Shown here: positions 3,821 through 29,223 of the stretch, in pieces
Position numbering within the stretch: the stretch's first letter is position 1
Layout of the letters: each line of letters begins with the position of its first letter
NCBI RefSeq assembly: GCF_000007225.1
Contig: NC_003364.1
Location: forward strand, 1,890,001-1,922,000
Direction of reading: 5' to 3'
DNA length: 32,000 nucleotides
Source: Pyrobaculum aerophilum str. IM2
GTDB lineage: Archaea > Thermoproteota > Thermoprotei > Thermoproteales > Thermoproteaceae
Position numbers and translations under genes: made by a program
Notes under the pieces: model-generated
What the model was told of the DNA's origin: nothing
Database searches by the model: none
The model's input: only the letters and a program-made list of their open reading frames with translations

Positions 3821-3886
3821 GTGTTCAACGAAAAAAGACAAAACATGTGAGAAGTTAGGGCTACGGCGGCTTTTCGATCCCGCGCA

Positions 3887-4225: not shown

Positions 4226-4254
4226 GGCATTGCTGTATAACCGTCGCCGTGCCG

Positions 4255-4575: not shown

Positions 4576-4598
4576 ATAGACGTTTGAACTTGCGTCCG

Positions 4599-5000
4599 AT
4601 GTCCTCAGAGCAACAAAAACTGAGGTGGGGAATTGCGTGGATATACTCCTCGTCAAACAACACTATAATAACAATTACCGACTTAACCGGGGCGGAGACA
4701 GTGGCGCGCGTAAGCGGCGGACAAGTCGTGAGGGCAGATAAAGACAAGCCATCTCCGTGGGCAGCCATGCAGGCCGCGTATAAAGCGGCGCAACTGGCCC
4801 TGGCCAGGGGGATAAACGCAGTACATATAAAAGTCAGGGGGCCAGGCGGATATGGTATGAAAGTGCCTGGACCCGGCGCCTCGGCCGCTATAAGAGCGCT
4901 GGCCCGGTCAGGCCTAGTCATCGGCCGCATAGAGGACGTCACGCCGATTCCGCACGACATAATCAGGCCGCCCAGCGGGCGCAAGGGCAGGAGAGTCTAA
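4599..5000 (+). CDS. rps11: 30S ribosomal protein S11 (uS11)
   Basis: [30 protein letters not shown]...KVRGPGGYG...[31 protein letters not shown]...[11 protein letters not shown] is typical uS11. The TATA-like AAAAATAAATAG at about 4568-4580 favours ATG 4599 over the track's TTG 4584. Confidence 0.92.
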
Positions 5001-5272
5001 TGGAGAAGAGAGACTGCCTCATCGCCGTTATTGAAAACTGCGGCGGCCAGCCGGCCGCCAGCTCTCTAAAAGACCTCCTCAGACAAGCCCGCATAAAGGC
5101 GAGGAAGTTAGTAATAATAAGCGCTTGCGGAAAGCTCGGCAAGGTTTTCCCAATTGTGAGACAGATAGCCAGCGACAACATGGACTTCCCCGTGAGGCAC
5201 TATCACCAAGTGGAAATACCGCAAGCAGCCGCGCTTGAAAACTGCGCCGCCTATGAAGTTATAAAAGTGTGA
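5000..5272 (+). CDS. hypothetical protein (90 aa), translationally coupled to rps11
   Basis: The ATG overlaps the S11 stop (TAATG at 4998-5002). I recognise no family. Confidence 0.5.
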   Translation: MEKRDCLIAVIENCGGQPAASSLKDLLRQARIKARKLVIISACGKLGKVFPIVRQIASDNMDFPVRHYHQVEIPQAAALENCAAYEVIKV

Positions 5273-5284
5273 CTATTTCTAAAT

Positions 5285-5334
5285 GTGATGAGGAGGCATT
5301 TGCGGCAGTAGATGGCCGGCGCCGGAAAAGCTGA
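5285..5334 (+). ncRNA. candidate C/D box sRNA (about 50 nt)
   Basis: Canonical C box GTGATGA (5285-5291) and D box CTGA (5331-5334) lie 50 nt apart, followed by TTTT. The internal D'/C' boxes are poor. It sits directly after the stop of the 90-aa ORF. Confidence 0.35.
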
Positions 5335-5551
5335 TTTTACAGGCGCGCGGCTTTCACCAGCTGTACCTACTCCCCTTGCCAGTCAACGCCTTTAACACAG
5401 CGGCTTGTCGTCCCTGAGAAATTTTTCACCGCCCCAGCTATTTCTATACGCCACTCTCACTGAGATATTACCAGGCTTTAACAAGAGTCCTTTAATTGTT
5501 TAGCATATGAGCAGTGGACTGTAAAGTTTTTAAACTCTTTTTTTTGAACGT

Positions 5552-13035: not shown

Positions 13036-13951
13036 ATGGCGTTAATACTGGCGGCTATAGTCGCCGTTGCCTACGCGGTGCTGGCCCCGCTCCTCTTCCC
13101 GGCGGTAGTGCTGACCCAAGCGGCGCTGGGCATTAAAGACTACATAACGGCCTTCGCAGTGCTCGCGGCGGTGTCAGCCGCGGCTATGTACATAATCTCG
13201 CCCTACATTATAAACGCCGTATTCGGCCCCAGGCCCGACCCAGGGCTCCAGCAACTAGTAGACGCAGTGGCCGCCAAGCTGGGCGGGAGGGTCAAGGCCA
13301 GGGCGGTGGTGGTGGAGGGCCCCCCCAAACGCCTTCGCCTACGGCAACTTCCTAACGGGGAAGTACGTGGCGGTGACCACGGGCTTGTTAAACACGGCGA
13401 GCCGCGACGAGCTGGAGGCCGTCATAGGCCACGAGCTGGGACACCACATAAATAAAGACATGCCCATTATGACGGCCCTAGGCATACTGCCCTCCATCGC
13501 CTTCTTCACAGGCGTAGCGGCAATACACCTAGGCCTGGCCGACAGAGAGAGGCCCTCAATACTCGCCATAGCCTACGGCGTAGTTATGATCGTCGTCTCT
13601 TTCATTGTACAACTGCTAGTGCTCTCCTTCAGCAGGCTGAGAGAATACTACGCGGACATGCACGGGGCCAGGGCCGCGGGAAAAGACGCCATGATGCGCG
13701 CCCTAGCCAAAATACACAAATACTACGCCCAAAACCCGGAGGCCCTCGCGACCTCGCCGAAGATCTCCGGCTTTAAAGCCCTTTTCATATACGCCCTAAT
13801 AAACGCCGCGGCCAACCCCCTAATTGACATCACGCCCGAGGAGGTGAGGCAGCTGATGAGGCTACAAACCAGCTGGCTCGACGAAATCCTCTCATCGCAC
13901 CCGCCGATACCAAAGAGGCTCAAAGTGCTCTCAGCCCTGGCAGCCCCCTAA
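13036..13951 (+). pseudogene. htpX: HtpX-like M48 zinc metalloprotease split by a 1-nt frameshift in a C7 tract (13320-13326)
   Basis: Frame A (13036-13455) reads ...VVVEGPP|KRLRL. Frame B (open back to about 13328) reads NAFAYGNFLTGKYVAVTTGLLNTASRDELEAVIGHELGHHINKD. Removing one C restores EGPPNAFAYG, the conserved PNAFA motif upstream of HELGH. Confidence 0.85.
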
Positions 13952-14040: not shown

Positions 14041-14116
14041 GCGGCGGTAGTCTAGCCTGGTTTAGGATGGCGGCCTGCCAAGCCGTTGATCCCGGGTTCA
14101 AATCCCGGCCGCCGCA
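14041..14116 (+). tRNA. tRNA-Gly (anticodon GCC), no intron, CCA encoded at 14117-14119
   Basis: Hand-folded cloverleaf. Acceptor stem GCGGCGG/CCGCCGC; D stem GTCT/GGAT; anticodon stem GCGGC/GCCGT with loop CTGCCAA; 5-nt variable loop; T arm CCGGG-TTCAAAT-CCCGG; discriminator A. TTTAAAAA lies about 40 nt upstream and a T5 run is at 14122-14126. Confidence 0.93.
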
Positions 14117-14251
14117 CCACGTTTTTCTCCCTCAAAAAACTAGCACTTGCGTTCGCGTCTCTTCACGGACGAAAACGCAACTCTTCCCCAGAATTTCAAA
14201 AACACTCTTTAGGCGGCGCTAAAGCTGAAATACTCGTATTGTCTTAGCGGC

Positions 14252-15253
14252 GTGGGAGTTGAGATCTGCCGCTCTCTCCTTGAGTGCTTGGGCGCGCTGG
14301 GGCGCTCGCAGAGGCTTTACGCGGCGGCTGGCCTTGTGGACGAGGAGGGCCTTGAGGCGGCGTCAAGGGCGGCGGGGGAGCTGAGGGTTTTAGTCGGCGA
14401 CTCGGGACCTGTGCCCAGACCTGTGTACGAGAGGTGGAGAGAGGTGGTGCGCGTCTACCCAAGCCTCCACGCTAAGTTCTACATCTTTGCAGAGGACGCA
14501 GGCCCCTCAGCCGCCTTAGTGGGAAGCGCCGACCTGACAGCCGGCGGGCTTAGGGGGAATTTAGAGGCGGTAGTCTTAATCAGGGGGGAGGCCGCCCGCC
14601 CCCTCGCTGACATGTTTAACAGGCTGTGGGCCAGGGCGCTCCCGCTGACCGAGGACTACGTGGCCGACTGGGAGGGCCCGGAGGAGGCGCTCCGGAAGCC
14701 TTGGGGGGAGGCCGTTAAGCGAGCCAACGAGAGGCTGGCAGAGATCCTCGGCGTGAGCGCGCACTGCCTCTCCCGGCACGACCCGCTGAACTGCGCCAGG
14801 CTGGTTGCCAGGGCTGTCCGCTCCCGGTTTGAGGGTTGCGGGGATCTGCCTGAGAACTGCGCCGCGAGGGCGACCGGCGTTAGCGCCAAGGCCCTCCTCT
14901 CTGCGCCGCCCTCAGCGGTGCTGGCGGGGCACTACGTCTGCTGGGCCAGGGCGCTGGCCGCCAGGTTACTAGAGGGCAAAGTAGGGCGCTTGGACAGCGG
15001 AATGGAGGCGTACGAGGCCGCTGTGCAGGCTGGTGCCGAGAGTTGCTGGGGAGAGGCAAAGAGGGCGGCGGAGGAGGAGCTGGAGAGGCTGGAAGACAGC
15101 AACTACAGAGACAACTACGTGAGGTGGCCAATACCCTACAGGCTTCTCTTCCTAGCGATGACTCTGCCTGCTACGGGTTGCCGCATATTGGGCAGAGAAG
15201 TGAGGACAAAGAAGAGGGGTGTAGCCAGAGTGGAAAGGGAGCTCTACTGCTGA
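14252..15253 (+). CDS. PLD-superfamily (single HKD motif) nuclease-like protein with an Ala/Arg-rich C-terminal extension
   Basis: HKD-type motif LHAKFYIFAEDAGPSAALVGSADLTAGGLRGNLE (14468-14566), i.e. HxK...GSxD/N-LT...N-E as in PLDc_2/Nuc-like nucleases. The gene is very GC-rich and has a GTG start. Its 3' end overlaps the convergent 670-aa gene by 10 nt. Confidence 0.7.
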   Translation: MGVEICRSLLECLGALGRSQRLYAAAGLVDEEGLEAASRAAGELRVLVGDSGPVPRPVYERWREVVRVYPSLHAKFYIFAEDAGPSAALVGSADLTAGGLRGNLEAVVLIRGEAARPLADMFNRLWARALPLTEDYVADWEGPEEALRKPWGEAVKRANERLAEILGVSAHCLSRHDPLNCARLVARAVRSRFEGCGDLPENCAARATGVSAKALLSAPPSAVLAGHYVCWARALAARLLEGKVGRLDSGMEAYEAAVQAGAESCWGEAKRAAEEELERLEDSNYRDNYVRWPIPYRLLFLAMTLPATGCRILGREVRTKKRGVARVERELYC

Positions 15254-17256
15254 GGCGCTTGAGGACACAGCATTCTTAAAAACATAATAGCCATTCTCTT
15301 GGACACTTTCATCTCTTCGTGAAGCGGCGGATAAACGCAGAGATTTCTCTGCATTAATACACGCCGCTGACACCCATCACTACAGCTGGGAATGTGGCGA
15401 GGCCACACGTACTGCAGAATTTTGCTACTGCTCTGTCCTGCACTCGCGCCAATGCCTCTAATTATGTCGCGTAACATAAACCTGAATATATCCCTCGGCG
15501 GAGTTACTTCCTGCGGTCTGCGTTTGAGTTCTTGGTCCAGGCTTGAGGCGAGCTGGTCTTGCGCGGCTATAACGCGGTACATCCTCTCTACGCGCCTACT
15601 CTCCTCCTCCCACGCGCGCTTGCATGCGTCCCTGGGCGAGCCGCAACCGCCGATGTCCTGCAGTAGTTTGCCCAGCACACTTGACAGATCCTGACAGTTC
15701 ATCATACTAGTCCCTTTTAAGTCGTATACTGTGATCTCTACTTCAGCCACACTGTTTAAACTGGTATTGACCTCTATATTAAACAATCCGTCTATGTTGA
15801 GGGGCTCGTAGCTCTCCCACCCGAACATGGCGCAGTTAAGCATAGGTAGCTTGCGCGGATTCAGCTTCACAGCGATCCTTTCGCTGAACTCATCCCGGCC
15901 GAGACCTGCTGACTTGCCTAGCAAGTGCGCAACGCCGTGTGAGCCGAGAAGAATTGCAGAGAAGGCGAGCGTGTCATAAAGGGTCAGCGCGGCGAAGAGC
16001 TCTTTGCTTCGCGATTCTATTAATCTGCACTCAAGTCTGCCCGTATACTGAAATCGCGTCATTAAACAGCTTCTAAAGTCGTTCGGCGTCTGCGAGTTCT
16101 CTATACAGTCTGTAAAATAATCTATCCACCGCTGGCGCTCCTGGCTTATACTAAGATCTCTGCACTTATATTTTACTACCGCATTTTGCCACCTCTTTAA
16201 CAGACTTCTGAGCCCTCCAGAGCCGCTGTAATTAGCACCACTTCCGTATATCTCGCTGTATATGCCTAAAATTCTGCTGATAATGGGGGTTGTGATTACA
16301 ATTTCTCTTCCAAATATAGATGCGCTGATTTCCCTCTCGGTTACCCAGCGTCCGCAACCAAAGGCCCTAAAAACACTTCCAGCAACGACGTTTTGCAACA
16401 GCAACTTCACGGCAACTTTCTTATCGCTGTCTAGCAGTACGCTCCGTACATTACTGTATAGGAGGTCGTCAGAGATGTTCAGCTTGATTCTATAATACTT
16501 TGCGCTTGGGTGCAGTGTTCTGGGACTTGAGCTACCGACAATGTCGTAATGCACTACCACCGGCAGATAAGCGGCTCTATCTTTTGTCCTCAGCGAAATA
16601 AGCGATCCCATATAGATAGCCTCAACAACGGCTTCTCCTAACTCCAGCGTGCCGCCCAAACACTGAGAACGGCTGAAGGAAGAAACCTCGTCAACAAAGG
16701 CTTTGCCAAACACATTCAGCTTCTCAACTGCATCAACCGTCGCCGTAAAGCTCCAAGATGCGTGTCTTCCCGATATGGTTAGCTGAAATCTTTCACTCCT
16801 ACCTTTTGCAAGCGGAATGTTTCTTGTTATTGCAACAATCCACGGTTCTCCCCGCCTTCCAAAATTCTTAACTACGGCGTATGTCTGACTCTCTGACTGT
16901 CTCTCGCTACAAGAGGTTAAGAACAGCACGGCGTAACTGAGCCACCCAGCTTCGCCGTTGCGGTATACATAATATCCGCATATGTCGAAATTACGGCGCC
17001 CTGTACTGCTTCTGCAAAGCCCGCACAGCCTGTCTGCAAGATAGTCAATATCAAAAGACACGGTATATGTAAACTCGGCAACAGGAGACTGATCAACTGC
17101 AACAGCTGATCCTCCTTGTTGCGCGGGTGTTAATTCTCTTATTTCCGCTTGTCTTAAGACTGTTAGGATGAGTACGTTTACGTTGTCTTGTCTGGTGATG
17201 CTTCCGCCGACAAGGTAGAACCTGTTGCCCCCGTAAGCCGGCAAGTATATTTTCAT
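15244..17256 (-). CDS. 670-aa Cys-rich protein, partner of the nuclease-helicase. The C-terminal half resembles DUF1998 (MrfA/DrmB-type Zn-binding domain).
   Basis: Its ATG overlaps the stop of the upstream 1287-aa gene (ATGA, 17253-17256). These elements occur in the order I recall for DUF1998: SHGVAHLLGKSAGLGRDEF, then ITVYDLKG, then GGCGSPRDAC, then CSDGCQRRVLMQRNLC...LHEEMKVSKRMAIMFL. This has not been verified by an HMM. Confidence 0.8.
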   Translation of the reverse strand: MKIYLPAYGGNRFYLVGGSITRQDNVNVLILTVLRQAEIRELTPAQQGGSAVAVDQSPVAEFTYTVSFDIDYLADRLCGLCRSSTGRRNFDICGYYVYRNGEAGWLSYAVLFLTSCSERQSESQTYAVVKNFGRRGEPWIVAITRNIPLAKGRSERFQLTISGRHASWSFTATVDAVEKLNVFGKAFVDEVSSFSRSQCLGGTLELGEAVVEAIYMGSLISLRTKDRAAYLPVVVHYDIVGSSSPRTLHPSAKYYRIKLNISDDLLYSNVRSVLLDSDKKVAVKLLLQNVVAGSVFRAFGCGRWVTEREISASIFGREIVITTPIISRILGIYSEIYGSGANYSGSGGLRSLLKRWQNAVVKYKCRDLSISQERQRWIDYFTDCIENSQTPNDFRSCLMTRFQYTGRLECRLIESRSKELFAALTLYDTLAFSAILLGSHGVAHLLGKSAGLGRDEFSERIAVKLNPRKLPMLNCAMFGWESYEPLNIDGLFNIEVNTSLNSVAEVEITVYDLKGTSMMNCQDLSSVLGKLLQDIGGCGSPRDACKRAWEEESRRVERMYRVIAAQDQLASSLDQELKRRPQEVTPPRDIFRFMLRDIIRGIGASAGQSSSKILQYVWPRHIPSCSDGCQRRVLMQRNLCVYPPLHEEMKVSKRMAIMFLRMLCPQAPQQ

Positions 17257-20200
17257 AGTGTCTCGTATCTGTCTGTCTTCAGGGGAGCTGATTTCAGATA
17301 CGCCTCTCTAAGCTCTCTGCTCCGCCTCCTAATACCTCCGCTTTCTACTGTGTAGTGAGCCAGCGAGTATTCAATTATGCGCGGATCCGGCATTGGCGGC
17401 ACAAACGTCAGCTGAAGCAGTATCTCCCTTGTCCTCCATCCGCTGTAGCTTGGTGCCCTAGGAAAGTACTGCAGTATCAACTCTCTAGCAACGTGTAAAG
17501 CGTCTCTCACATAATCGCGCACAATATTGTAAATTCTTATATCATTGTTAATAAAACATTTTGAAAGATCAGGTAAAGAATCAAGTTGTGACAAAACATT
17601 GCCTAACGTAAAGTAAAGCTCCCAAGAATACTTTAGCGGATCTGTTGCATATATGTTTATTATTTTTGATAAATTTTCATATAAACTACACGTATTATTA
17701 ATATTTTGTAAAACATTTCTAATATTATCAATGTATTGATTTATTTGATTAACAATATCTCTCAAGAGCCGGTGAGCTACTTGCTGCATTGAGCCTCCGA
17801 GCGCTTGAAGTGCGCTACACATTGTTTGAAGTCTCGAAGATATAACATGATACAGCTGATTCGCTTGGTTAGCATCTGAAACTAGAAATTGGAGAGAGCT
17901 CTCTACTACTTTCTCCACCTTGTTTATTACATTGCTGTTTCTAAACCACCCTAATGCTCTGATTGTCGTGTAGGCTATGAGTTGCTCAATGCTTATAATT
18001 CTGCTTTCGTCTCGCGGAAGCACAGGCGTTCGCTTAAAGGCGAAGAGTCTGGCTACGGCGTAGTCCTCGTCAATAAGCGCCACATCCTCCCCAGTATGCT
18101 TAGCAAACAAGATGCCAAGCGCGGTATAGAGAACGGATTTGTCCCTACCCCCGCGGCCAAACCTCTGTATAACGTTTTCTGCAAGCTTGGGAAGACCCAG
18201 CTGGCCCACTGCTCCAACGCCGGTAAGATTAACGCCGAGCTCCAGTGTCGATGTTGAAAGAACTACAGACCATGCACCAGGTCGCTCCAGCTTTTCCTCT
18301 ATACTATACCTTACGTTATCGGACAGATCTGCATGGTGTATCAGCAATGTGTGCCTGTTCTGTATATTTCTGCCGTTATTCCTGATATCACTTATGATAT
18401 CTATAGTAGCATCAATTGCCATATTGTAGCACTGCGGCCCCCTTGCTACCGAACTATCTGAATTATAGGCTCTTTTTGCAGAGCCATATGCGTTATTCAG
18501 CTCTGCCAGCGATGTGCAGAACAGCGTAAGGTGGCTGAAGTCTTCCAGCTCAGCCAGGCTACCAGAGTTGAGGATATTTCTGACTAGATTCAAACCATAT
18601 GATGCTATATTTCCGTTGATCAGATTCATTACAAACGGTTTGGTAACGGTCTTGTCAGATGGAGATCCCTCTTTAAGCACCAGCCTGTCCCTTACATATG
18701 CTTCAACTTCGCTTAGACTCTCTTTGCTGTCAAAAAATATTACGGACGAGAAGTTTCTCAGCACTTCTGCCGAGAGCTTGCGCCTGGCACTTGACGCTAT
18801 CATTAAAGACACCACAGCCTCTTGGACTGTGCCGCTGGGCGACTCCGCGGGATTTGTAAAGACCACCATTGGTGCGGTCAGCTTTGCAACTGTTACAGTA
18901 CTGCCACTCCCTTGGATGCTGCCCAGCATGCTATAGTAGTCTATTGGTTCGACAGCATATTCTTGCACCAGCCTTTCGCCGAGTAGCGCATTAGCGAGAC
19001 TTTCTGAAAACTCCCTTACCATTCTCGGATCGGGCGGCTCCGTTCTCTCAACTGCACCTACAGAGCGGAAGGTAATAGGCGCGCCGCTTGCGTCGCTGGC
19101 TATTCTGTCAGCAAAGGGCAGACCTGAGCTTGTAACTGTCGCGCTTGATAATATTATTGCAGGATACTTTTTCACGTCTCCAAGCAGATAAAGGCGGTGG
19201 AGGAGCGCCGTGAAGAAGTCTAGGTGCTTGGGCTCCAGCATTGTGTGTACTTCATCGATTACTAGCAGTGCAAGACTGTTGGCTAGCTTCTTTGCGCTAT
19301 CAGCGCTCCTCATGAGCATCGAAGACAGCTTATATGGATTGGTAACTATTATTGAAGAACTCAGCGCGTCGTCGTCCTCGCAATCTGTGAACCAGCTTAC
19401 TTGACTGGCCGCTTGATTTGTCCTGCATATATACTGCCCGCCTTGATACTCTAAGCTACCTCTTCCTCCATCGCACCTAAGGGCGCGCACGCCTCCTTGG
19501 GGTCGCCTGCCGCATCTTTTGCTGTCGCCATCTAAGACGGCGAGGCTTATATTCGCACCATGTCTATTAAGACCTTCTACTATGTAGTAAATCTGCTGAA
19601 CTTGTTGCAACGCCAGCTTTTTGCTTGGATACATTATCACAGCTTTGAAACCGTGTAGCGCAACAGCAATTGCAACGATTAAGAACACGAGAGTTTTTCC
19701 AGTGCCTGGAGGCGCCGTCAGAATAATGAGCGGGGAGCGCCCCGATTTTTCAAGCCATGCGGTAATGTTTTCTGCAATCTTTCTTATCGCCTCGTTCTGA
19801 AAGCCGCTTATATTAGTAATCGGCTGTCCTTTTTCATCAAATAGATTACTTACTAATTTATTAATCCAGTTCTCGTTCCATAAATTTCTTGAAAAATAAT
19901 TACTAATTTGATCTACTTTTATGTCTCTGCTACCTATATGATCAATTATAATTGGCAGGTAGTAGGCCTCAAAAGTTCTTCTATTGCCTGGTAGTGCGGA
20001 TATATTACGGATGAGTCTTGCAACTTCTCCGTGGAAAGTTCTGTAGCACCTCTCCGGTCCATTCAGCAACTTCCGCACATCTATCCTAACACCGCGCCTT
20101 CTCAGAGAGTTCAGCAGAGATACATACTCTAACATTATCAGGTAATCATTCCTTGTTACTTGAAATGCCACTACGTAACGTCCGCTGGAATCTATCTGAA

Positions 20201-21116
20201 TTTTCTGAAGGGGGATTCTATATTGATAACAGCTCTTTTCAATGAGCAATTTCTGCGCTTTGAGGTACTCTGCGATCTGCGACGCATTTTGAGAATTAAT
20301 CACATAATGAATGTGTTCCTCTGTAAGTGGCAAATTGTCTCTATGAAGCGTAGTTTGTGAAAGCGCGATGTAAAGAGGTCCGCATTTGACGCACCTAGTG
20401 CCGTGACGCGCGAGACACCACTCAGTTTTAAACAGCTCTTGATATGCAACTTCAGCGCTGGCGGCTCTGACCTGAGCAGTGCCTTGTGCGATATAGCTAC
20501 GCATTTTCTCACGTATTGGACAGTCTGTGTTCCTACATCTGGCGCACTCAGGGCCTGGCTTATACGCCAGCTCTGCCGACGTAGTTGTAGATGCGCCTTC
20601 TTTACGCGCTGTCTCAACATCAATGAATATAAAAAACGGCGTATTTTCTAAGCCCTCCACCGGTATTCCTCTATATACCAGTACGGGAATTACTTCAGGC
20701 GAGCTGAACCTTCTTCTTATCTCCTCTCCATACAGAACAGCTTGCTCGAAATCGGCGATGTAGGATCTTGTAAATCCCCTTTGACAGTACGATTCTTCAT
20801 TTATCTCCGCGAAAGGGTAGCTTTTAATCTCAAGCACGTATATTTTATCAATGCACCTAAGAACAGCGTCAGCAACTCCTCTCTTCACCAATGGGTTTTC
20901 CTCTATGCATTCGCTACCGATTATATCCCTAAATATCCTAACAACACGCGCTACTAGTTCGTCGTGTTCTCTCGACTTAGCCTCAAGCACTTTCTTAGCA
21001 TCCTCAGTAATATCCTCCTTAAAGTGATAACAGTGCAGAAGGCTTCTAATTCTTCTTGCTTCCTCTCTAGCGGCCATCATGACGCACACTAAAATCCAGA
21101 GCTGTTGAACACGCAC
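17253..21116 (-). CDS. 1287-aa fusion protein: N-terminal Cas4/RecB-like PD-(D/E)xK nuclease with Fe-S cysteines, an SF2 DEVH-box helicase, and a long helical C-terminal region
   Basis: Nuclease motifs: C70...D82/D90...VLEIKS (E96-x-K98, nt 20823-20831)...QAVLY (QxxxY)...CARCRNTDC (nt 20520-20546). Helicase motifs: I APPGTGKT (19692-19715), II DEVH (19245-19256), III SAT, then HHADL, V STSTLELGVNL, VI QRFGRGGR (18144-18167). The start is GTG 21116 or ATGATG at 21080. Confidence 0.9.
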   Translation of the reverse strand: MRVQQLWILVCVMMAAREEARRIRSLLHCYHFKEDITEDAKKVLEAKSREHDELVARVVRIFRDIIGSECIEENPLVKRGVADAVLRCIDKIYVLEIKSYPFAEINEESYCQRGFTRSYIADFEQAVLYGEEIRRRFSSPEVIPVLVYRGIPVEGLENTPFFIFIDVETARKEGASTTTSAELAYKPGPECARCRNTDCPIREKMRSYIAQGTAQVRAASAEVAYQELFKTEWCLARHGTRCVKCGPLYIALSQTTLHRDNLPLTEEHIHYVINSQNASQIAEYLKAQKLLIEKSCYQYRIPLQKIQIDSSGRYVVAFQVTRNDYLIMLEYVSLLNSLRRRGVRIDVRKLLNGPERCYRTFHGEVARLIRNISALPGNRRTFEAYYLPIIIDHIGSRDIKVDQISNYFSRNLWNENWINKLVSNLFDEKGQPITNISGFQNEAIRKIAENITAWLEKSGRSPLIILTAPPGTGKTLVFLIVAIAVALHGFKAVIMYPSKKLALQQVQQIYYIVEGLNRHGANISLAVLDGDSKRCGRRPQGGVRALRCDGGRGSLEYQGGQYICRTNQAASQVSWFTDCEDDDALSSSIIVTNPYKLSSMLMRSADSAKKLANSLALLVIDEVHTMLEPKHLDFFTALLHRLYLLGDVKKYPAIILSSATVTSSGLPFADRIASDASGAPITFRSVGAVERTEPPDPRMVREFSESLANALLGERLVQEYAVEPIDYYSMLGSIQGSGSTVTVAKLTAPMVVFTNPAESPSGTVQEAVVSLMIASSARRKLSAEVLRNFSSVIFFDSKESLSEVEAYVRDRLVLKEGSPSDKTVTKPFVMNLINGNIASYGLNLVRNILNSGSLAELEDFSHLTLFCTSLAELNNAYGSAKRAYNSDSSVARGPQCYNMAIDATIDIISDIRNNGRNIQNRHTLLIHHADLSDNVRYSIEEKLERPGAWSVVLSTSTLELGVNLTGVGAVGQLGLPKLAENVIQRFGRGGRDKSVLYTALGILFAKHTGEDVALIDEDYAVARLFAFKRTPVLPRDESRIISIEQLIAYTTIRALGWFRNSNVINKVEKVVESSLQFLVSDANQANQLYHVISSRLQTMCSALQALGGSMQQVAHRLLRDIVNQINQYIDNIRNVLQNINNTCSLYENLSKIINIYATDPLKYSWELYFTLGNVLSQLDSLPDLSKCFINNDIRIYNIVRDYVRDALHVARELILQYFPRAPSYSGWRTREILLQLTFVPPMPDPRIIEYSLAHYTVESGGIRRRSRELREAYLKSAPLKTDRYETL

Positions 21117-21259
21117 TCAATGTTGCCGTGCTACATAGAGCCAAGTAATCAAGTGGCACATCTCTAGCGGCAAAGTTATATATTAAGTTTTTCTGCATAA
21201 ATTACAGCGTTAGATCTAGCCTCTTCTGCCTAAAAATATCTTGCAGTGAGCGCAGACGT

Positions 21260-21952
21260 TCAGACGCGCTCTCGCTTCTGATAGAATACGCACACATTAT
21301 TGGCCAGAGGGCACAGACTGCACTTAGGCGATTTGGCAGTACACACCTTTCTCGCAAAATCTAGCACTCCAAAGTTAAACTCTTTGGCCAGCTCTGGATC
21401 TCGGGGAACGAGAGATCTCGCAAAATTCCAAAGCTCCCTGTCGGTATGAGGCCTCCTCTTTTTAGATTTGATGCCAAACACTCTTTCAATAACCCTTATC
21501 ATATTTCTGTCGAGAAGCGGTTCCGGCTTCCCACACGCCGTAAGGAGGACTTCGGATGCGGCATAGTCGCCCACGCCCGGCAGTGACTTCAAAGCGTCTC
21601 TGTCGCAAGGAATCTGTCCATTAAATCTCCTGACCAGCTCCTCCGAAAGCTTCTTGAGGAGCGTTGCGCGGACGTGCTCCATCCCCAGAGGCTGTATAAT
21701 TGCTTTAATCTCCTCAACACTGGCGTCTGCAAGGCGAGCCGGCGATGGGTACCGTCTCAAAAATTCCCTATATATATCGACAACTTGCTTTACCGTAGTC
21801 TTCCTCAGAAGCAGGGCCGCGACGAGCACAGCCCACGGGTCGCCGGCTTTCCGCCACGGCAGGTCTTTCTCGCCGAATTCTCTATACCACTTAATGATGG
21901 CATCACGGAATTTAGTATAATCTACACCACGTGGTATAAGATCTGAACACAC
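21260..21952 (-). CDS. mig: HhH-GPD/[4Fe-4S] DNA glycosylase of the EndoIII/MutY superfamily, Mig-like (T/G and U/G mismatch glycosylase type)
   Basis: Motifs: LPWRKAGDPWAVLVAALLLRKTT; HhH LPGVGDYAASEVLL, with Tyr where EndoIII has its catalytic Lys, as in Mig; catalytic-Asp segment LLDRNMIRVIERV; Fe-S loop CTAKSPKCSLCPLANNVC. It is adjacent to a C5-MTase, as for Mig.MthI. Confidence 0.85.
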   Translation of the reverse strand: MCSDLIPRGVDYTKFRDAIIKWYREFGEKDLPWRKAGDPWAVLVAALLLRKTTVKQVVDIYREFLRRYPSPARLADASVEEIKAIIQPLGMEHVRATLLKKLSEELVRRFNGQIPCDRDALKSLPGVGDYAASEVLLTACGKPEPLLDRNMIRVIERVFGIKSKKRRPHTDRELWNFARSLVPRDPELAKEFNFGVLDFARKVCTAKSPKCSLCPLANNVCVFYQKRERV

Positions 21953-21992
21953 CGGCTTGATTCTCAGAGCATAGTATATAAAAATGTAACAT

Positions 21993-23024
21993 ATGGCCTC
22001 GTTATATATGGCCGTTAGTGTTTCAACATGCGAGCCCTATGTTTCTAGAGCGGTTAAGCAGGACTCCACTCTTGCGATATACGCCGAATACGTCAGCGAT
22101 CTCTGTGAAGGCGCTGTAAGGAGCGGAGACGTAGAACGCTTCTCAAAGCTAGACGAGTGGCTTGAGTGGCTTAAATGGAGCTCCGTCGTTTTGAACCATC
22201 ACGATTACTTAGAGGTAGCAGTGCGTACACTGAGGCTTGCACCATATCTGAGACCCACAGACTATGGAACAGCTAGACAGCGAGATCTGGGTCAGCTGTG
22301 GACCGATGCTATAAGGGGACATTTGGGCGAGATAGCCTTTGCAAAATGGATTAGCGAGAAATTTGGTATAGCCATAGAAACGGGACTCAGCGAGCTTGGT
22401 CCGCTTGAGGAATTTCTACCATCTGATGTAATAAAGGTAAACAACAGGCCTCCACAGCTTAAGGTCAGTATTAAAACTACAAAATTAAGGGGAGTGTGGC
22501 TTGATATTCCGTATAAGCAGATAGATCACAGTGACATTTTTATACTAGTGAGAGTCGGCGTAGCTAGGGAGCATTTCATAGCTTTTCTGAAGGCTATCAG
22601 TGTTATTAGAGACAAAATTCTAGCAACAGCACTGCAACAAGGTATCATAAGTGAAAAAGAGAGCGAGGAAATCTGGAATTTGCTACCCGACTTTAAGCCG
22701 ATACCTGCGTATATTGTAGGTTATTTTGACAAAAGATTGTATATAGATTATATTCAGAGCGAAGACGTTATTGAAGTTGATGGAATCATTGGAACAAGAA
22801 ATATAACAGTTAGAAAGTACTTAGGTTACTGGCATCCCGAAGACAACAGAGTGAAAGAATCGGTTCTCGCAAGGCTGGAACAAAAGTACGGCACAAAGAT
22901 TTCTGGTTACAAAATTCGGTTTGAAGGAATTGGAGATTTTTCAAAAACAAAGCACTTCGTAGTTAGCTCTGGATTTCTAAAACGCACAGAAAGGGATTGG
23001 AGAGAGCTATTAGCTCAGCTGTAG
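21993..23024 (+). CDS. candidate type II restriction endonuclease (PD-(D/E)xK-like); otherwise hypothetical
   Basis: The putative catalytic pattern is GE113IAF ... PSD145VIKV ... KVS159-I-K161 (nt 22329-22475). The gene converges on and overlaps the C5-MTase gene by 10 nt, a typical R-M arrangement. The start could be ATG 22008. Confidence 0.5.
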   Translation: MASLYMAVSVSTCEPYVSRAVKQDSTLAIYAEYVSDLCEGAVRSGDVERFSKLDEWLEWLKWSSVVLNHHDYLEVAVRTLRLAPYLRPTDYGTARQRDLGQLWTDAIRGHLGEIAFAKWISEKFGIAIETGLSELGPLEEFLPSDVIKVNNRPPQLKVSIKTTKLRGVWLDIPYKQIDHSDIFILVRVGVAREHFIAFLKAISVIRDKILATALQQGIISEKESEEIWNLLPDFKPIPAYIVGYFDKRLYIDYIQSEDVIEVDGIIGTRNITVRKYLGYWHPEDNRVKESVLARLEQKYGTKISGYKIRFEGIGDFSKTKHFVVSSGFLKRTERDWRELLAQL

Positions 23025-24406
23025 AAATCTGCTAAAATTCTGGCCAGCGTCTCCGCTATCTTCATAGCCGCCAGCGGCGGCACAGCCTCTCCAATTTGCG
23101 CCCTTATCTGCGTCTTTGAACCGTAAAAGAGGAAGAGATCGGGAAACGTCTGGAGCCTAGCCCTCTCCCTCAATGTCAGAGTCGCCCTGTCTCTGTCGTA
23201 ATGATAGCCGTGAGTTCCGCCGCCGCCGTATGCCACTACAGTATAGGCAGGTATCAGCGGATGCAACCTCCTGTAGATTAGGCTGATGCCTCTCCCCTTT
23301 ACTTCCCACTTTGTCCCTTTGACAAACTCGTGGTTTTCGCCGGGCGGGATCCGCTTCATCCGCTCTACTACCTCTGTACTGTCGTCGGGGGGGTCGGTCG
23401 TGCCGTCGGGAAGTTTTAGGAGGCTGACAGGCGTGTTGTAGTATCCGAGAAGCTTCAGCACCACCTCGTGTTCTCTAAATGCGGCGTCTAGCTCCTCACT
23501 GTCAGTCCTCTGCACTCCATTCAGCCTTAAATAGTCTTGGACTGCGTCAAAAGTCAGATCGTCCCACACTTTCTGCTTCCACATGAGAGCGGTTTCTGTG
23601 CCCACTTCTTCCCACACTCCGCGCCACTTCTCCATAATTTCTCTATACTCTTCCTGCAACTCATCAAGCCTCCTGCCTTCAAAGACTTCCAGCGGCGTGA
23701 GGGGAAATTTTGCAAAAACAGTCTTACGCAGAGCGCGGTCAATTACAGCCCTGGCATGCCAGATCTGCTCCGCAGAGCGGATTAAATCTCGCCTTATGCC
23801 GATTATTATCAGCCTCTCCCTCTTCTGGGGAACGCCTGCGGCCGCAAAATCGACTATATCACTAAATACTATCTCATAACCTTTAACGCCAGCACCTATT
23901 TTCTCTTGCGTCATGATCTCCTTTACCTCTTCCCATCTGGTATTCAGCCTGGCGAAATCTTCGATAATGGTCTTGTACGCAAGGCCCCCGTTCGCGCTCG
24001 TCAAGCCTGGGACGTTTTCAAAGACAAAAGCTTTGGGCTGAAGTACTGCGAGCGCTCTGATGAAGTGGGCATACAGCCTCCCCCTCTTTATCGTTATGCC
24101 GACACGGGCGGGCCCCCTTACAATTGAAAAGTCTTGACACGGCGGGCCGCCGACAACTACGTCAGCCTCTCCAGCTAGCGGCGAAAACAGTACTTTCTCT
24201 ACGTCGCAGGACAGCACAACATTCGGCTCGGCCTCAGTTAAGCCGCCGCACTTCAGCAACTTCATCTCGAAGTTCTTGGCATATGTTGTGGTAGCGTACA
24301 GATTTACGTCATTTGCAAATATTATTTGGTACATTCCGCTCATCTTAAAGCCTAAGTCAAGACCTCCGGCGCCCGAAAAGAGCGAAACGACTCTGAAGGG
24401 TTTCAT
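23015..24406 (-). CDS. DNA (cytosine-5)-methyltransferase
   Basis: Motifs: I LFSGAGGLDLGF; IV GGPPCQDFS; VI FVFENVPGL; VIII QKRERLIIIG; a long variable (TRD) region; IX/X TLRERARLQTFPDLF...GEAVPPLAA. Confidence 0.95.
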   Translation of the reverse strand: MKPFRVVSLFSGAGGLDLGFKMSGMYQIIFANDVNLYATTTYAKNFEMKLLKCGGLTEAEPNVVLSCDVEKVLFSPLAGEADVVVGGPPCQDFSIVRGPARVGITIKRGRLYAHFIRALAVLQPKAFVFENVPGLTSANGGLAYKTIIEDFARLNTRWEEVKEIMTQEKIGAGVKGYEIVFSDIVDFAAAGVPQKRERLIIIGIRRDLIRSAEQIWHARAVIDRALRKTVFAKFPLTPLEVFEGRRLDELQEEYREIMEKWRGVWEEVGTETALMWKQKVWDDLTFDAVQDYLRLNGVQRTDSEELDAAFREHEVVLKLLGYYNTPVSLLKLPDGTTDPPDDSTEVVERMKRIPPGENHEFVKGTKWEVKGRGISLIYRRLHPLIPAYTVVAYGGGGTHGYHYDRDRATLTLRERARLQTFPDLFLFYGSKTQIRAQIGEAVPPLAAMKIAETLARILADFYS

Positions 24407-24420
24407 AGCGTTGCTGTACG

Positions 24421-24696
24421 CTAATGGCGATTGACCAGGCGAGTGGCAGAGAGGTCACAGCGTAACAGCATTTTTACTCCTTCTTCGTTTGTACTTTCTA
24501 ATATGTTTGGAAGTGCCACCACCTTTACCTGAGACTCCCTGTACCGCATCTTCCAAGACTTCACTGGTATTTTCTCCGATGGCTCACTATATAAGTGCAT
24601 ATGTCTTAAAGTCGTTGTATTGTACAGATATCCCACAACCCTAACTATGGGGTATAAAACCAAATTAACGGGGAAAGAAGTCCTTGATTTTATCAT
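24421..24696 (-). CDS. hypothetical protein (91 aa) immediately upstream of, and co-oriented with, the C5-MTase gene
   Basis: ATAAAGATAAAAG lies about 24 nt upstream of the ATG on the minus strand. There is a 14-nt gap to the MTase start. The composition is AT-rich like the rest of the block. I recognise no motif. Confidence 0.45.
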   Translation of the reverse strand: MIKSRTSFPVNLVLYPIVRVVGYLYNTTTLRHMHLYSEPSEKIPVKSWKMRYRESQVKVVALPNILESTNEEGVKMLLRCDLSATRLVNRH

Positions 24697-25177: not shown

Positions 25178-26245
25178 TTGAAACTTTTACCTATCCCCCT
25201 TTTACTTTTATTTACTACTACCTTTATATTTGTATTTTTTCTCGGGGCTATGGGTTGGTTTGTTGCGCTTGGCGTTGACGTAAATAGAGACTACTTGGCG
25301 TTCGGCTGGCTGACTAACGACGCCGACTACGTGGCCTCTGTGCTGGGCGGCTGGGGGATGCACCCGCTTACTAGCTGGCTGTTTGAAGAGCACGTGGAGT
25401 TCGAGGGGCCGCTGGCGTTGGACCACAGCGTCACTGTGCCGGCGGTTAAATACGTGGGGGTTTTAATGTGGCTCCCTGGGCGTAAGAACAGGAGGCAGAA
25501 GCGGTGGCGGAGGCTGGCGTTGGGTAAGCTCTTCGCCCAGCTTACGCCGTGGCTGAGGTTTTTGGCTGACGCGGGGACTCCGGCAGTTGTGGGACTGGAG
25601 GACCTCAGGGGCATGGCGGAGAAGAGGGGCATCCACGAGATTGAATACGCCAAGATCTGGAAAAAGGCCATGGGCTCCTTCGGCGCTTTGCTCAAAGAGG
25701 GAGACGGCTACCGAGCTTACGTGGGCAGGGGGAGGTCTGTGGTCATCGCGCTCGACCCGAGGGGCACTTCGTCCATATGCGCTATATGCGCCGCCGAGGG
25801 GAAGACGACGCCTGTTAAGGAGAGGCCCGACAGAACCGTCTACTGTCCAATACACGGCGCCATGAACCGCGACATTAACGCGGCCTTTAACATTGCCATT
25901 AGGGCCGTGAGGATCTACGCGGGGGATCCGCCGGGGGGCGCCCGCGGGGGACTAGAAAATCCCCAGCCGCGGGTGCTCCCCACGGGTCTCCCGCGTGATG
26001 ACAGAGGAGTACAAGATGCGCACGGAGATGAGACCGTAGAAATCAGGCAGGCGCCGAGGCTAGACTACCGCCGCAACCCACACCTGAGAGCGCCCCCCGG
26101 CGCCCTATACGCGTATTTGGAGGAGGTATTTAAATGTTTCGGCTGTGCTGAGGGATTTGGCGTTGCGCCGTCGTTAATCGCGGCCTTCTCGAGCCCGTCT
26201 GGAACCGCACACACGCCTGTTTTTTCGCCCCATGTGGGCGCATAA
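25178..26245 (+). mobile_element. tnpB: IS200/IS605-family TnpB (OrfB) remnant: RuvC-like core retained, N-terminal about 150 aa missing, aberrant C-terminal read-through
   Basis: RuvC-I ALGVDVNRDYLAF; RuvC-II VVGLEDLRGM; zinc finger CAICAAEG...CPIHG; RuvC-III NRDINAAFNIAIRA. The first roughly 30 codons are low-complexity (LLLLFTTTFIFVFF). About 110 codons follow the normal C-terminus. No TnpA and no obvious IS ends were seen. Confidence 0.8.
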
Positions 26246-27500
26246 AGTCGCGGCTAATTCTAGGGAGGAGTTTGTAAGCGTTTTGCTGTCGCGTAAGTTT
26301 TTCGGCCTGGATTTGTCAAGGGGGGTTGTCCTCCTGGAGCGCAGGGCTGACCACCCCTTTGTCCCCCTGGGGAAAGAGAGGCGGCTTAGGGTGTGTAGGG
26401 GCTCTCCGCCCCTCCCGGCGGCGGCGTGGCGGGTTAACGGGGAGAGGCCTCTGACTTTTAAGTCAGGCCTGGGGGTGGGGATCTACTGGTTTGAGCAACT
26501 CGGCCTCTTCAAGAGGGGGAGGGAGTGGGCGGTGGCATCTAGCTGTAAGAACAGGCCTCCTTTCTTCGGCTGGGAGAGAGTGGCCGGGTGGGCGGTGGCC
26601 GAGCTCTTGAGGGAGGCGCCCTATTGGCGCTTCTGGCCTCCCCTCAAGGGCCCCGTGGAGGGGCACCTCCTTATTGCCGGCAGTAGCGGGTCGGGGAAGA
26701 CCACGTTTTTAAAGCGCTATCTATCGTGGGTTGGGAAGTGGTACGTGGTGGACCTCACAGAGGAGGGGGAGTACGTGGGGCTTGCGGCAACTGTGGAGGG
26801 CTCTGTGGACTTGGCCTCTCTCAACGCCGAGGAGCAGGCGCTTCTCTACAGCCTAGGCGTGGCGGCCACTGTGGGGGCGAGGGAGGCCGCGGTCTCCGCC
26901 GTCCAGCTGGGCGCCTTGAAGCTCTTGGCCCGCAGGGGGCTGGGCCTCGACGGCCTTTTAGAGGAGCTGCGCACGGCGGGGGACATCCCGCAACTGACTA
27001 GAGAGGTTTTGTTCACAAAACTGTCGGCCGCTTGCGAGGGGTTTGAGAACGGCAGGTGCAGGCCGCACCCGGCGTTGACGAAAGACGTCGACTTGCCGCC
27101 TCCGCCTGCTGTTATTAGAGTGAGCCCCTCCAACCTGCTCGTGGCGGCTATAGTCGCCCACGGGGTTTTGGCCAAGTTGCTCAAGAGAGGCGGCGTTTTC
27201 GTGGCCGTGGACGAGTACCACAAAATTGCCCCGAGGCTCCCGGTGGAGGACCCTGTGGAGAGGGCGTTGAGAGAGGGCAGGCACCGGGGGGTGGCCTTGG
27301 CCGTGGCCACTCAGAACCCCCTGGACGTCAAGGAGTCTTTGGCGTCTGTGGTGGGGAACTACGTGTTTTTCAACTTGGCGGGACCCGCGGCCCGCTTCGC
27401 CGCCGAGGTTTTAAACGTGCCCCAGTGGGCCGTGGAGTCGTTAAAGCCCGGCGAATACCTGGCCAAGTTGCGCCATGGCCCAGCGGCGGGGGCTGTTTAG
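26232..27500 (+). CDS. HerA/FtsK-like P-loop ATPase (DUF87-like)
   Basis: Walker A HLLIAGSSGSGKTTFL, Walker B VFVAVDEYHKIAP, sensor-like AVATQNPLDV. The gene is very GC-rich. Confidence 0.75.
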   Translation: MWAHKVAANSREEFVSVLLSRKFFGLDLSRGVVLLERRADHPFVPLGKERRLRVCRGSPPLPAAAWRVNGERPLTFKSGLGVGIYWFEQLGLFKRGREWAVASSCKNRPPFFGWERVAGWAVAELLREAPYWRFWPPLKGPVEGHLLIAGSSGSGKTTFLKRYLSWVGKWYVVDLTEEGEYVGLAATVEGSVDLASLNAEEQALLYSLGVAATVGAREAAVSAVQLGALKLLARRGLGLDGLLEELRTAGDIPQLTREVLFTKLSAACEGFENGRCRPHPALTKDVDLPPPPAVIRVSPSNLLVAAIVAHGVLAKLLKRGGVFVAVDEYHKIAPRLPVEDPVERALREGRHRGVALAVATQNPLDVKESLASVVGNYVFFNLAGPAARFAAEVLNVPQWAVESLKPGEYLAKLRHGPAAGAV

Positions 27501-28180: not shown

Positions 28181-28636
28181 GTGGCGATATCCCCCTACGT
28201 CCTGGAGGTCTTGCGCAAGGCGGCGGGAGGTCGAGATCTCGACGAGTTTCTGCTGGAGTTGGTGGCGGATAAGCTGGATCCCCGGGACCGCGTTGAGGCG
28301 TATCTCGCCTTACACGAGAAGTACTTGAGAGAGGCCGAGGAGCTTTACGCAAGGGGCGATCTCCCTCAAGCCGGCGAGAAATATTGGGGCGCCGTAACTG
28401 CCCTACTCAACGCCATAGCCGAAAAGCGTGGAATGCCCCACTACAGCCATCGCGACTATTCGCTCATCGTCGGAAGGCTCTATAAGGAGACGAGAGACCG
28501 GGATCTCGTGGTGGGCTTCAGGATGGCGGAGGGGTTGCACGCCAATTTCTACAACAACTTCATGGAGAGGGAGGAGTTCGACTTACACAGAGAGGCCGTT
28601 AAGATCTTAATTGAAAAGCTAAGGCGTTTCCTGTAG
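28181..28636 (+). CDS. PaREP1-family protein (151 aa), copy 1
   Basis: GTG start about 20 nt after AAGGATAAAAATAAAC. Four-helix-type sequence ...YLREAEELYARGDLPQAGEKYWGAVTALLNAIAEKRGMPHYSHRDY...AEGLHANFY..., recognised as the Pyrobaculum PaREP1 family. Highly similar to the next gene. Confidence 0.8.
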   Translation: MAISPYVLEVLRKAAGGRDLDEFLLELVADKLDPRDRVEAYLALHEKYLREAEELYARGDLPQAGEKYWGAVTALLNAIAEKRGMPHYSHRDYSLIVGRLYKETRDRDLVVGFRMAEGLHANFYNNFMEREEFDLHREAVKILIEKLRRFL

Positions 28637-28767
28637 GGTGTAGCGCGATATTCGCAAAGCGAGACTCCCCGGCGACTTGGCGATGCGGCGAGATTACTCT
28701 CTGCGTCTTGCCAGAGCGTACGCGTCTCAAAGTTTTTATCCCATGCGCACTCATCATAGTGTCTCTA

Positions 28768-29223
28768 GTGATTTCCCCGCCAGTGGCTGAGCTCTTGCGC
28801 AAGGCCGCCGGCGGCCGGGACGTAGAGGAATTTCTCCTCTCGTTAATTGCAGAGAGGCTTGACCCCTCTGAAAGAGTTGATGTTTACCTCGCCCTTTACG
28901 AAAAGTACTTAAGAGAGGCCGAGTCGCTTTACGAGAAAGGCAATTTGGCACAGGCGGGGGAGAAGTACTGGGGAGCCGTCACGGCGTTGTTAAACGCCAT
29001 AGCCGAGAAGAGAGGAATGCCCCACTACAGCCAGAGGGACTACGCCGTGATAATAGAGAGGCTTTACCAGGAGACTAAAGACAAAGAGCTGTTAGTGGGA
29101 TTCCGCTTGGCCGAGGGGCTCCACGCCAATTTCTACCACAACTTCATGGGAAAAGAGAGTTTTGAGTTACATAGAGAGGCCGTATTGGGGCTGGTGGAGA
29201 GGCTGAAAAGACTCCTGGGCTAG
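28768..29223 (+). CDS. PaREP1-family protein (151 aa from GTG 28768; the ORF track starts it at 28708), copy 2
   Basis: It aligns end to end with copy 1 (VISPPVAELLRKAAGGRDVEEFLL...GEKYWGAVTALLNAIAEKRGMPHYSQRDY...AEGLHANFYHNFM). Both are 456 nt, offset by 587 nt. AAAGTTTTTATCCC lies upstream. Confidence 0.8.
   Translation: MISPPVAELLRKAAGGRDVEEFLLSLIAERLDPSERVDVYLALYEKYLREAESLYEKGNLAQAGEKYWGAVTALLNAIAEKRGMPHYSQRDYAVIIERLYQETKDKELLVGFRLAEGLHANFYHNFMGKESFELHREAVLGLVERLKRLLG

Follow-up and report, generated by a model that had tools for sequence, protein, structure and literature searches.

What kind of system is encoded by a 10.5-kb gene cluster of the archaeon Pyrobaculum aerophilum str. IM2, in which a large helicase shares a neighbourhood with a cytosine methylase, a candidate restriction endonuclease (REase) and a mismatch glycosylase? 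The cluster lies in a 32,000-nucleotide stretch of the chromosome (NC_003364.1, positions 1,890,001 to 1,922,000), hereafter the window. A sequence-only reading of this DNA had recognized in it the parts list of DISARM class 2 in a rearranged form, and had left the choice between a divergent archaeal DISARM-like system and the chance juxtaposition of a new helicase system with an ordinary restriction-modification (R-M) system. By exact-sequence look-up, we traced the DNA to P. aerophilum IM2 and the six proteins of the cluster to AAL64743 to AAL64748, and an open reading frame (ORF) scan placed all six genes where that reading had put them. The six proteins were searched with the Pfam, PADLOC and NCBIfam profile libraries, and genomic contexts were recovered for 20 loci and compared by BLAST. 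The core of the island is a previously undescribed two-gene module, consisting of an Lhr/MrfA/YprA-like helicase with an N-terminal NERD nuclease domain and a translationally coupled partner of ~670 aa. This module is genetically tied to a C5 methylase and to the glycosylase Pa-MIG, and its variable accessories are a REase, a PLD-like protein, and a 422-aa protein with a STAND NTPase. Judged by profiles, the locus appears to resemble DISARM without being a member of it.

Association of the helicase operon with Mig and a C5 methylase

In what follows, Hel denotes the helicase, C its ~670-aa partner, Mig the glycosylase, MT the methylase, RE the REase, and A and B a 422-aa and a 540-aa gene of related loci, with > and < for gene direction. 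Hel and C adjoin an orthologous Mig in at least five lineages, over which helicase identity falls from 50% to 34%, and in at least four gene orders. The order in the window is MT, RE, then Mig>Hel>C<PLD. Locus L001 (helicase 50% identical) has a degraded PLD-like remnant>Hel>C<Mig; L005 and the group of L003, L007, L013 and L015 (40%) have a PLD-like gene and/or RE, <MT<Mig, then A>B>Hel>C; and in L018 (34%) the genes abut in one direction as Hel>C>Mig. Every helicase-C pair whose contig permits checking has a Mig orthologue (52-63% identity) beside it. Mig, previously described as separating the methylase from the helicase, is in fact the gene that stays most constantly with the helicase pair. 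An orthologous C5 methylase was found wherever the contig extends far enough, and such orthologues (54-61% identity) adjoin the helicase operon in L003, L005, L007, L010, L011, L013 and L015. Furthermore, the PLD-like gene travels with the island in four lineages, and in L019, which has a C of a more distant subfamily, the start of an N6/N4-type methylase (DPFGGSGS) directly follows C. The flanks of the window showed no similarity to the other helicase-C loci and therefore do not represent a syntenic host region. When the co-occurrence of PLD-like, helicase and methylase genes was checked in other genomes, orthologues were found to recur together, and the recurrence of orthologous genes in unrelated contigs and in different orders contradicts the chance juxtaposition entertained earlier. 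The clustering of helicase, C, Mig and methylase is more than chance.

Mig is identical in sequence to the thymine/uracil-DNA glycosylase of P. aerophilum IM2 (AAL64746), the biochemically characterized Pa-MIG, a T/G and U/G mismatch glycosylase. By profile, the window has the features of a type II C5 R-M system with a Mig-type glycosylase (PADLOC PDLC03398 was also matched, 9e-39). The methylase matched the PADLOC model MTase_II PDLC03223 with an E-value of 1e-204, as against 1.9e-53 for DruM and 1.6e-39 for DrmMII. The methylases form two clades, with 55-58% identity between them, and the REase accompanies just one. Indeed, REase orthologues (46-47% identity) are confined to loci with a same-clade methylase (L007, L008 and L015), indicating that REase and methylase form a cognate pair.

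The comparison of L013 with L015 revealed an exchange of methylase genes. The two loci share 96% DNA identity from inside Mig through A-B-Hel-C and beyond, and 91% over the PLD-like gene. Between the 3' end of the PLD-like gene and the 3' end of Mig, L015 carries an RE+MT cassette (3470-6159) and L013 a different MT alone (4664-6171); the two are unrelated alleles, with methylases 57% identical. Therefore, Mig, being included in the 96%-identical DNA together with the helicase operon, goes with the helicase block and not with the methylase cassette, and the methylase, with or without the REase, is an exchangeable specificity cassette in a conserved frame. In L003, L005, L011 and L013 a methylase is present and no REase could be recognized; with a PLD-like copy that is also devoid of the catalytic Lys, it follows that a methylase lacking its classical partner is kept beside the helicase-nuclease. 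A NurA-HerA pair was observed directly upstream of the REase in L007/L008 (731-3680), in the place that the PLD-like gene occupies elsewhere.

Most relatives carry, as part of a four-gene operon with helicase and C, A (422 aa) and B (a 540-aa STAND NTPase, nSTAND3/nSTAND_NTPase5), for instance at 7117-10004 in L003 and 7138-10004 in L005. A has no confident family, and its copy in L005 is weakly BrxB-like (PADLOC 0.003, Pfam 0.055). A 422-aa ATPase of the window (26232-27500) was considered as a counterpart of A and rejected, the two having no similarity. The island of L010 (7116-15854) is decaying: frameshifts have split or truncated every gene of its A, B, helicase and C set. Only 14 clusters among 5.8 billion proteins make up the helicase family, and a scan of GTDB genomes and viral contigs with the helicase alignment found zero relatives, the window's own genome being apparently masked in the GTDB collection. 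The C family is rare too: an exhaustive profile search of 1.84 billion proteins yielded 24 representatives, a word search 2, and a second word-indexed search with the C alignment just the two known proteins. As far as these searches reach, the family appears to be extremely rare and patchy and, so far, restricted to hyperthermophilic Thermoproteales.

The helicase and its 670-aa partner

The helicase, called elsewhere as a 1275-aa product, has its core at about aa 430-1030, with the Walker A motif APPGTGKT, a DEVH box and QRFGRGGR. Its N-terminal part contains a NERD/PD-(D/E)xK nuclease domain (~aa 60-135, nt ~20710-20940) and Cys clusters at aa 191-199 and aa 234-245. The Pfam NERD model matched this domain in five of seven family members (best E = 2e-4) and PDDEXK_1 in two of the seven (5.5e-4). 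Across 13 sequences of the family, D83, E96, K98, Q125, Y129 and several Cys clusters are invariant, and the domain holds the D...ExK motif expected of a PD-(D/E)xK nuclease, which bears out the earlier claim of an extra nuclease domain. A search of PDB sequences with the profile of this N-terminal nuclease gave no match. With the helicase profile, the best PDB sequence relatives were Lhr (8e-14), 9tu7, a 2108-aa DEAD/DEAH helicase (4e-9), and MrfA/YprA (1.5e-8). Set against the YprA-like group (COG1205), the helicase thus matches MrfA/YprA and matches Lhr better, and C has HxxxH and CxDGCxxC...C. All PADLOC matches of the helicase were partial (SngC 1e-22, BrxH 2e-13, DpdJ 4e-10, DrmA 1e-9).

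In the loci examined, C is always directly downstream of the helicase, mostly with a 4-nt overlap. The 670-aa protein of the window had no match at threshold in Pfam, PADLOC, NCBIfam or PDB sequences, nor did the DrmB and DUF1998 (PF09369) models of the three profile libraries match it. An invariant signature was nevertheless observed across 19 diverse members: G-x-H-G-x-x-H-x-x-x-K, followed ~180 residues on by C-x-D-G-C-x-x-C-V...C and then E-x-K-x-S-K. The residues invariant in the family are H440, H444, K448, E459, C545, E552, R592, C625, D627, G628, C629, V633, C640 and S652. A close relative, the L002 copy, is 99.7% identical overall to that of P. aerophilum. The His/4-Cys pattern is presumably that of DUF1998/MZB, with a helical insertion. 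MZB (PF09369) was the sole Pfam family to recur among C members, at sub-threshold E-values of 0.035-0.08 in two to three of them.

Structure prediction pointed in the same direction. An AlphaFold2 (AF2) model from the 19-sequence alignment (pLDDT 85.9, pTM 0.89; an earlier model from a 2-sequence alignment was unusable, with a pLDDT of 35.6) shows a beta-rich half at the N-terminus and a helical/zinc half at the C-terminus. Its best Foldseek match in the PDB was the 'DUF1998 helicase' MrfA (6znp_A, E = 0.03, probability 0.47), and a search of a viral fold library gave no match. Profiles of the C family, full-length (A5) or with the two motif regions joined (A6), retrieved neither MrfA nor DrmB from PDB sequences. 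We also compared the family by hhalign with an 880-aa DUF1998-motif protein of L016, which is described below. Nothing was found at full length; with the motif regions joined, the His and Cys motifs fell in register (pairwise E = 0.015). We retain the DUF1998-like label because of the conserved motif and these sub-threshold pointers. The sequence-only reading was right about the position of this gene directly downstream of the helicase, and its DUF1998-like assignment found no profile at threshold. The protein is likely, if unproven, to be a very divergent DUF1998/MZB-like zinc-cluster subunit, most likely a separately encoded 'canopy' of the helicase, like DrmB for DrmA.

The PLD-like gene and the layout of the island

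The PLD-like protein has a single-HKD PLD domain at its N-terminus, and its C-terminal two-thirds are Cys-rich. Pfam assigned it PLDc_2 (31.4 bits, cut-off 27) and the RE_NgoFVII PLD domain (31 bits, cut-off 23.8), and its DrmC and ZacB matches were weak and limited to the motif region. The HKD motif of the window copy, LHAKFYIF...GSADLT with Asp replacing Asn, is that of the PLD superfamily. Full-length homologues (41-49% identity) are found in L003, L005, L010, L013, L015 and L016, and fragments in L001 and L011; in the other islands these homologues adjoin the methylase or the REase, not C. Only the P. aerophilum copy retains HxK...GS, all six full-length homologues having GHAGNLYI...GGAP. 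With dN/dS of 0.12-0.26, purifying selection acts on the degenerate copies, whose conserved part is the Cys-rich C-terminal region. The P. aerophilum protein may be an active nuclease.

A pattern-based scan found the PLD-like gene in 2 of 185,579 species genomes, both times in defence-island contexts: Thermoproteus sp. CP80 (~90% DNA identity to metagenomic copies) and Caldivirga sp. MU80 (a truncated copy). With this distribution, and with its presence in the islands of four lineages, the possibility that the sequence-only reading had named as refuting it, that the PLD gene is a conserved host gene, does not apply. In CP80 its neighbour, in tail-to-tail orientation, is the final gene of a Dpd-like cluster, which is a different system, and the DNA homology of the PLD-like gene to other islands stops at its ends. 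The gene thus represents a rare module that is associated with islands and is found alongside 'modification + split helicase' systems of two kinds. The Dpd-like cluster (L016, NZ_LCWM02000004.1, 10969-19206) has its helicase and DUF1998-motif protein as separate genes. It comprises a DpdA-DpdC fusion of 633 aa (PADLOC DpdA 5e-75), a DpdJ-like helicase of 975 aa (5e-45), the 880-aa protein, whose motifs are HTYSHHL and C-x3-C-x2-C...C...LDRR, and a PLD protein of 263 aa that is DpdK/DrmC-like; tblastn of the 880-aa protein against plasmids gave no match. In Caldivirga sp. MU80 (L017, NZ_LCTF01000040.1, 7013-10224), a stretch with a 1484-aa STAND-like gene and the truncated PLD-like gene has 77-88% DNA identity to CP80, suggesting recent transfer or a binning error.

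The features of the island are listed in Table 1. As the sequence-only reading had noted, the PLD-like gene lies on the strand opposite to the operon, overlaps the 670-aa gene by 10 nt at their tail-to-tail 3' ends, and is far richer in GC, with 65% (GC content at third codon positions, GC3, 0.78) vs. 45-49% (GC3 0.45-0.53) for the helicase and 670-aa genes. This high GC was rejected as a mark of a host gene, the PLD-like gene being equally GC-rich in every island and rare across genomes. The start of the 670-aa gene overlaps the helicase stop by 4 nt, Mig lies 144-180 nt upstream of the helicase and reads in the same direction, and the REase and methylase genes are convergent with a 10-nt overlap. 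From the 670-aa gene through the methylase, GC3 is 0.41-0.60, as against 0.64-0.79 in the flanking host genes.

Table 1. Island genes and adjoining features, in window coordinates
Feature	Coordinates	Strand	Basis or remark
tRNA-Gly(GCC)	14041..14119	+	ARAGORN; forms the left boundary of the island region, immediately 5' of the PLD-like gene
PLD-like protein, 333 aa, AAL64743	14252..15253	+	Pfam PLDc_2, RE_NgoFVII above cut-off
670-aa partner C	15244..17256	-	No profile match at threshold; conserved motif
SF2 helicase, 1287-aa ORF	17253..21116	-	Pfam DEAD, ResIII, Helicase_C; N-terminal NERD/PD-(D/E)xK domain
HhH-GPD glycosylase (Mig), AAL64746	21260..21952	-	Pfam HhH-GPD, HHH, EndIII_4Fe-2S
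Type II restriction endonuclease candidate, 343 aa, AAL64747	21993..23024	+	PADLOC REase_II PDLC03411, E = 5e-116; existing annotation 'conserved protein'
C5 cytosine DNA methyltransferase, 463 aa, AAL64748	23015..24406	-	Pfam DNA_methylase 3.7e-51
Putative 91-aa ORF upstream of the methylase	24421..24696	-	ORF list; no Pfam match

No att-like direct repeat of the tRNA-Gly was found downstream. To the right of the methylase are a TnpB/Cas12f-like C-terminal fragment (25178-26245), the 422-aa ATPase mentioned above, which is FtsK/HerA-like, and two PaREP1-family paralogues (28181-28636 and 28708-29223) that form a 300-nt direct repeat with 70% identity. On the left, an HtpX-like protease gene is seemingly split into overlapping ORFs (13036-13455 and 13367-13951), through a frameshift or a sequencing or annotation issue. 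When synteny was examined in other P. aerophilum strains, L021 was rearranged beside an MBL gene, and the contigs of L022 and L023 end there.

Relation to known systems and proposed role of the island

DISARM, Dpd, Druantia, ARMADA, BRIGADE and TALON are all built around YprA-like helicases, which are accompanied by active and inactivated PLD or PD-(D/E)xK nucleases, TALON using a NERD nuclease (Bell et al., 2025, PMC12458937). Druantia, ARMADA, TALON, Dpd and BRIGADE share with the island a large MrfA/YprA-related superfamily 2 (SF2) helicase together with Zn-binding modules, a nuclease domain and, in many cases, a methylase, which in Druantia II is of the C5 type. The PADLOC DpdJ and DruE models partially match the window helicase, and the Dpd-like cluster of CP80 has the same PLD-like neighbour. 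However, the nuclease of these systems is C-terminally fused or separate, in contrast to the N-terminal one of the island; the helicase normally includes their OB-CON-DUF1998 array, for which the island has a separate gene; and none has been described with a HhH-GPD glycosylase. MrfA/MrfB (YprA/YprB) of Bacillus subtilis likewise pairs a DUF1998 zinc-domain helicase with a nuclease; there, DUF1998 is fused to the helicase, the exonuclease is separate, no methylase or glycosylase is linked, and the genes are housekeeping rather than island genes. Plasmid pFV1 of Methanothermobacter encodes the MthTI R-M system, in which a REase and a C5 methylase of type II adjoin an HhH-GPD T/G mismatch glycosylase, Mig.MthI. 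This system accounts for the MT-RE-Mig part of the window and is not known to carry helicase-nuclease or DUF1998-like genes. Cas4-like nucleases have been linked to YprA/DUF1998 helicases, and loci with Dcm and Vsr contain UvrD-Cas4 helicase-nuclease fusions in defence contexts (Hudaiberdiev et al., 2017, PMC5704561). Such loci have in common with the island a C5 methylase, a T/G-mismatch repair enzyme and a helicase fused to a PD-(D/E)xK nuclease, but theirs is an SF1 UvrD-type helicase with a Vsr endonuclease and no DUF1998-like partner, in place of an SF2 helicase with Mig. A search of the literature found no mention of the present system or its accessions. The N-terminal NERD nuclease, the split canopy, Mig in place of Vsr and the optional STAND NTPase form a new combination.

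We consider it slightly better than an even bet that this is a composite anti-virus defence island of the Thermoproteales, in which a DISARM-like, methylation-linked helicase-nuclease defence is joined by Pa-MIG, which would offset 5-methylcytosine deamination. The methylase would mark host DNA, and the REase, in islands that have one, or else the helicase-nuclease itself would attack invader DNA that is unmethylated. A complex of helicase and partner could load on DNA ends or single-stranded regions, translocate and degrade the DNA through the N-terminal nuclease. At ~100 degrees C, where 5-methylcytosine deaminates rapidly, Pa-MIG would repair the resulting T:G mismatches, keeping methylation affordable and preserving the self marks. 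The PLD-like protein would be an accessory, possibly an active nuclease in P. aerophilum and, where catalytically dead, structural or regulatory. A defence role is consistent with the low-GC block, with the rare and patchy family, and with the STAND NTPase and weakly BrxB-like gene of relatives; the tRNA on one side of the island and the TnpB fragment on the other also fit a defence context. A precedent for methylase, mismatch repair and helicase-nuclease in one locus exists in the Dcm, Vsr and helicase-Cas4-nuclease defence loci (PMC5704561). The gene content, the domains apart from DUF1998, the recurrence of the association and the exchange of cassettes are shown by the data; the defence role, the dependence on methylation, the complex and the DUF1998 homology we infer for all members. 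Several points weigh against this reading. The window, like L001, is without the A and B genes of most relatives, and its C has Arg at position 632 (CQRRV) for the third Cys of the four-Cys zinc cluster. The window methylase has its own cognate REase and therefore needs no further partner. The GC3 differences between modules and the independent exchange of cassettes also fit independent systems sharing an island, and the constant tie to a repair glycosylase could point to a repair function.

It is very improbable that the locus is a true DISARM class 2 system in rearranged form, with the helicase as DrmA, the 670-aa protein as DrmB, the PLD-like protein as DrmC, the methylase as DrmMII and DrmE lost. 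The parts list fits at the level of domain families, and a separately encoded OB-CON-DUF1998 protein, the split proposed here, is consistently found in DISARM only (Bell et al., 2025, PMC12458937). As in DISARM class 2, an SF2 helicase is followed by a separate protein with a DUF1998-type His/4-Cys signature, a PLD-family gene adjoins that protein, a C5 methylase is present in a defence-island setting, and the presumed logic would be a methylation mark with a helicase complex. However, PADLOC and NCBIfam gave essentially no significant match to DrmA, DrmB or DrmC. DrmA was matched weakly in PADLOC (E = 1.3e-9, residues 928-1002 only, a generic RecA2 region, and 6.7e-5), below SngC, BrxH and DpdJ, and not at all in NCBIfam; DrmB was not matched; and for DrmC, the NCBIfam model DISARM_DrmC_I reached 25.7 bits against a cut-off of 133, with PADLOC at 8e-6 or weaker. 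The methylase, a C5 enzyme like DrmMII, matches the type II model far more strongly than the DrmMII model. The absence of a DrmE-sized gene was upheld, as none lies in the cluster and PADLOC found no DrmE match among the six proteins. The PLD-like protein differs in architecture (PLD N-terminal, Cys-rich C-terminal) and orientation, and is degenerate in all relatives but the window copy. Moreover, the NERD domain of the helicase and Mig, which is constant, are extra parts, with the REase, or the STAND NTPase and 422-aa protein, as options, and the system is restricted to Thermoproteales. What stands of the earlier proposal is thus the non-random association of helicase, DUF1998-like, PLD and C5 methylase genes, and what falls is DISARM membership by profile.

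R-M genes are common in defence islands, and it is conceivable, if unlikely, that a type II C5 R-M system, accompanied by Mig for repair of the very-short-patch type, merely resides beside an independent helicase-nuclease and PLD-like gene without functional coupling, the genes staying together because islands are inherited and transferred as blocks. The methylase and REase are a classical convergent pair, the REase co-varies with the methylase clade, methylase cassettes have been swapped independently of the helicase block, GC3 differs between modules, and the PLD-like gene also stands beside the Dpd-like system of CP80, with DNA homology breaking at the gene ends. Mere co-residence is hard to reconcile, however, with an orthologous Mig, along with the methylase, staying adjacent through 34-50% helicase identity, at least four rearrangements and unrelated flanks. 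In addition, Mig is part of the helicase block and not of the methylase cassette, directly following C in the same direction in L018, and several loci keep a methylase without a recognizable REase. The constancy of Mig, which is co-directional with helicase and C in the window and in L018, would also suit a DNA-repair module, to which we give little credence. Here the helicase-nuclease and its partner would act like MrfA/MrfB downstream of Pa-MIG, excising DNA on either side of the abasic site or nick that results when T or U is removed from a pair with G, as an archaeal long-patch counterpart of very-short-patch repair that accompanies C5 methylation at high temperature. The YprA family does have a repair branch, MrfAB (PMC12458937), and MrfA ranks both among the closest PDB relatives of the helicase and as the top fold match of C. 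Against it, a housekeeping repair pathway would not typically be so rare and patchy or lie in a low-GC block. A STAND NTPase is added in most relatives, genes for a REase and a PLD-like nuclease are attached, and frameshifts are eroding the L010 copy, the usual course for dispensable defence genes.

Returning to the composite defence island, it is possible, at somewhat less than even confidence, that it represents a new class of YprA-like, methylation-linked immunity, built from a NERD-helicase and a split DUF1998-type subunit, with a swappable methylase and with Pa-MIG as an integral, co-inherited part instead of a housekeeping enzyme. If so, this class would be the first case of immunity that includes its own repair activity, covering the mutational burden which a 5-methylcytosine self-mark brings at ~100 degrees C, and would extend the YprA-like immunity of DISARM, Druantia and Dpd into hyperthermophilic Crenarchaeota. 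Its architecture, an N-terminal nuclease with a split zinc-cluster subunit, goes undetected by standard defence-finder profiles. The cassette swap between L013 and L015, together with the methylase-only loci, yields testable predictions on methylation-dependent discrimination between self and non-self. Pa-MIG, a characterized repair glycosylase, would be recast as part of a mobile methylation-linked island, offering a concrete model of how 5-methylcytosine could serve as a self mark at such temperatures despite its fast deamination.

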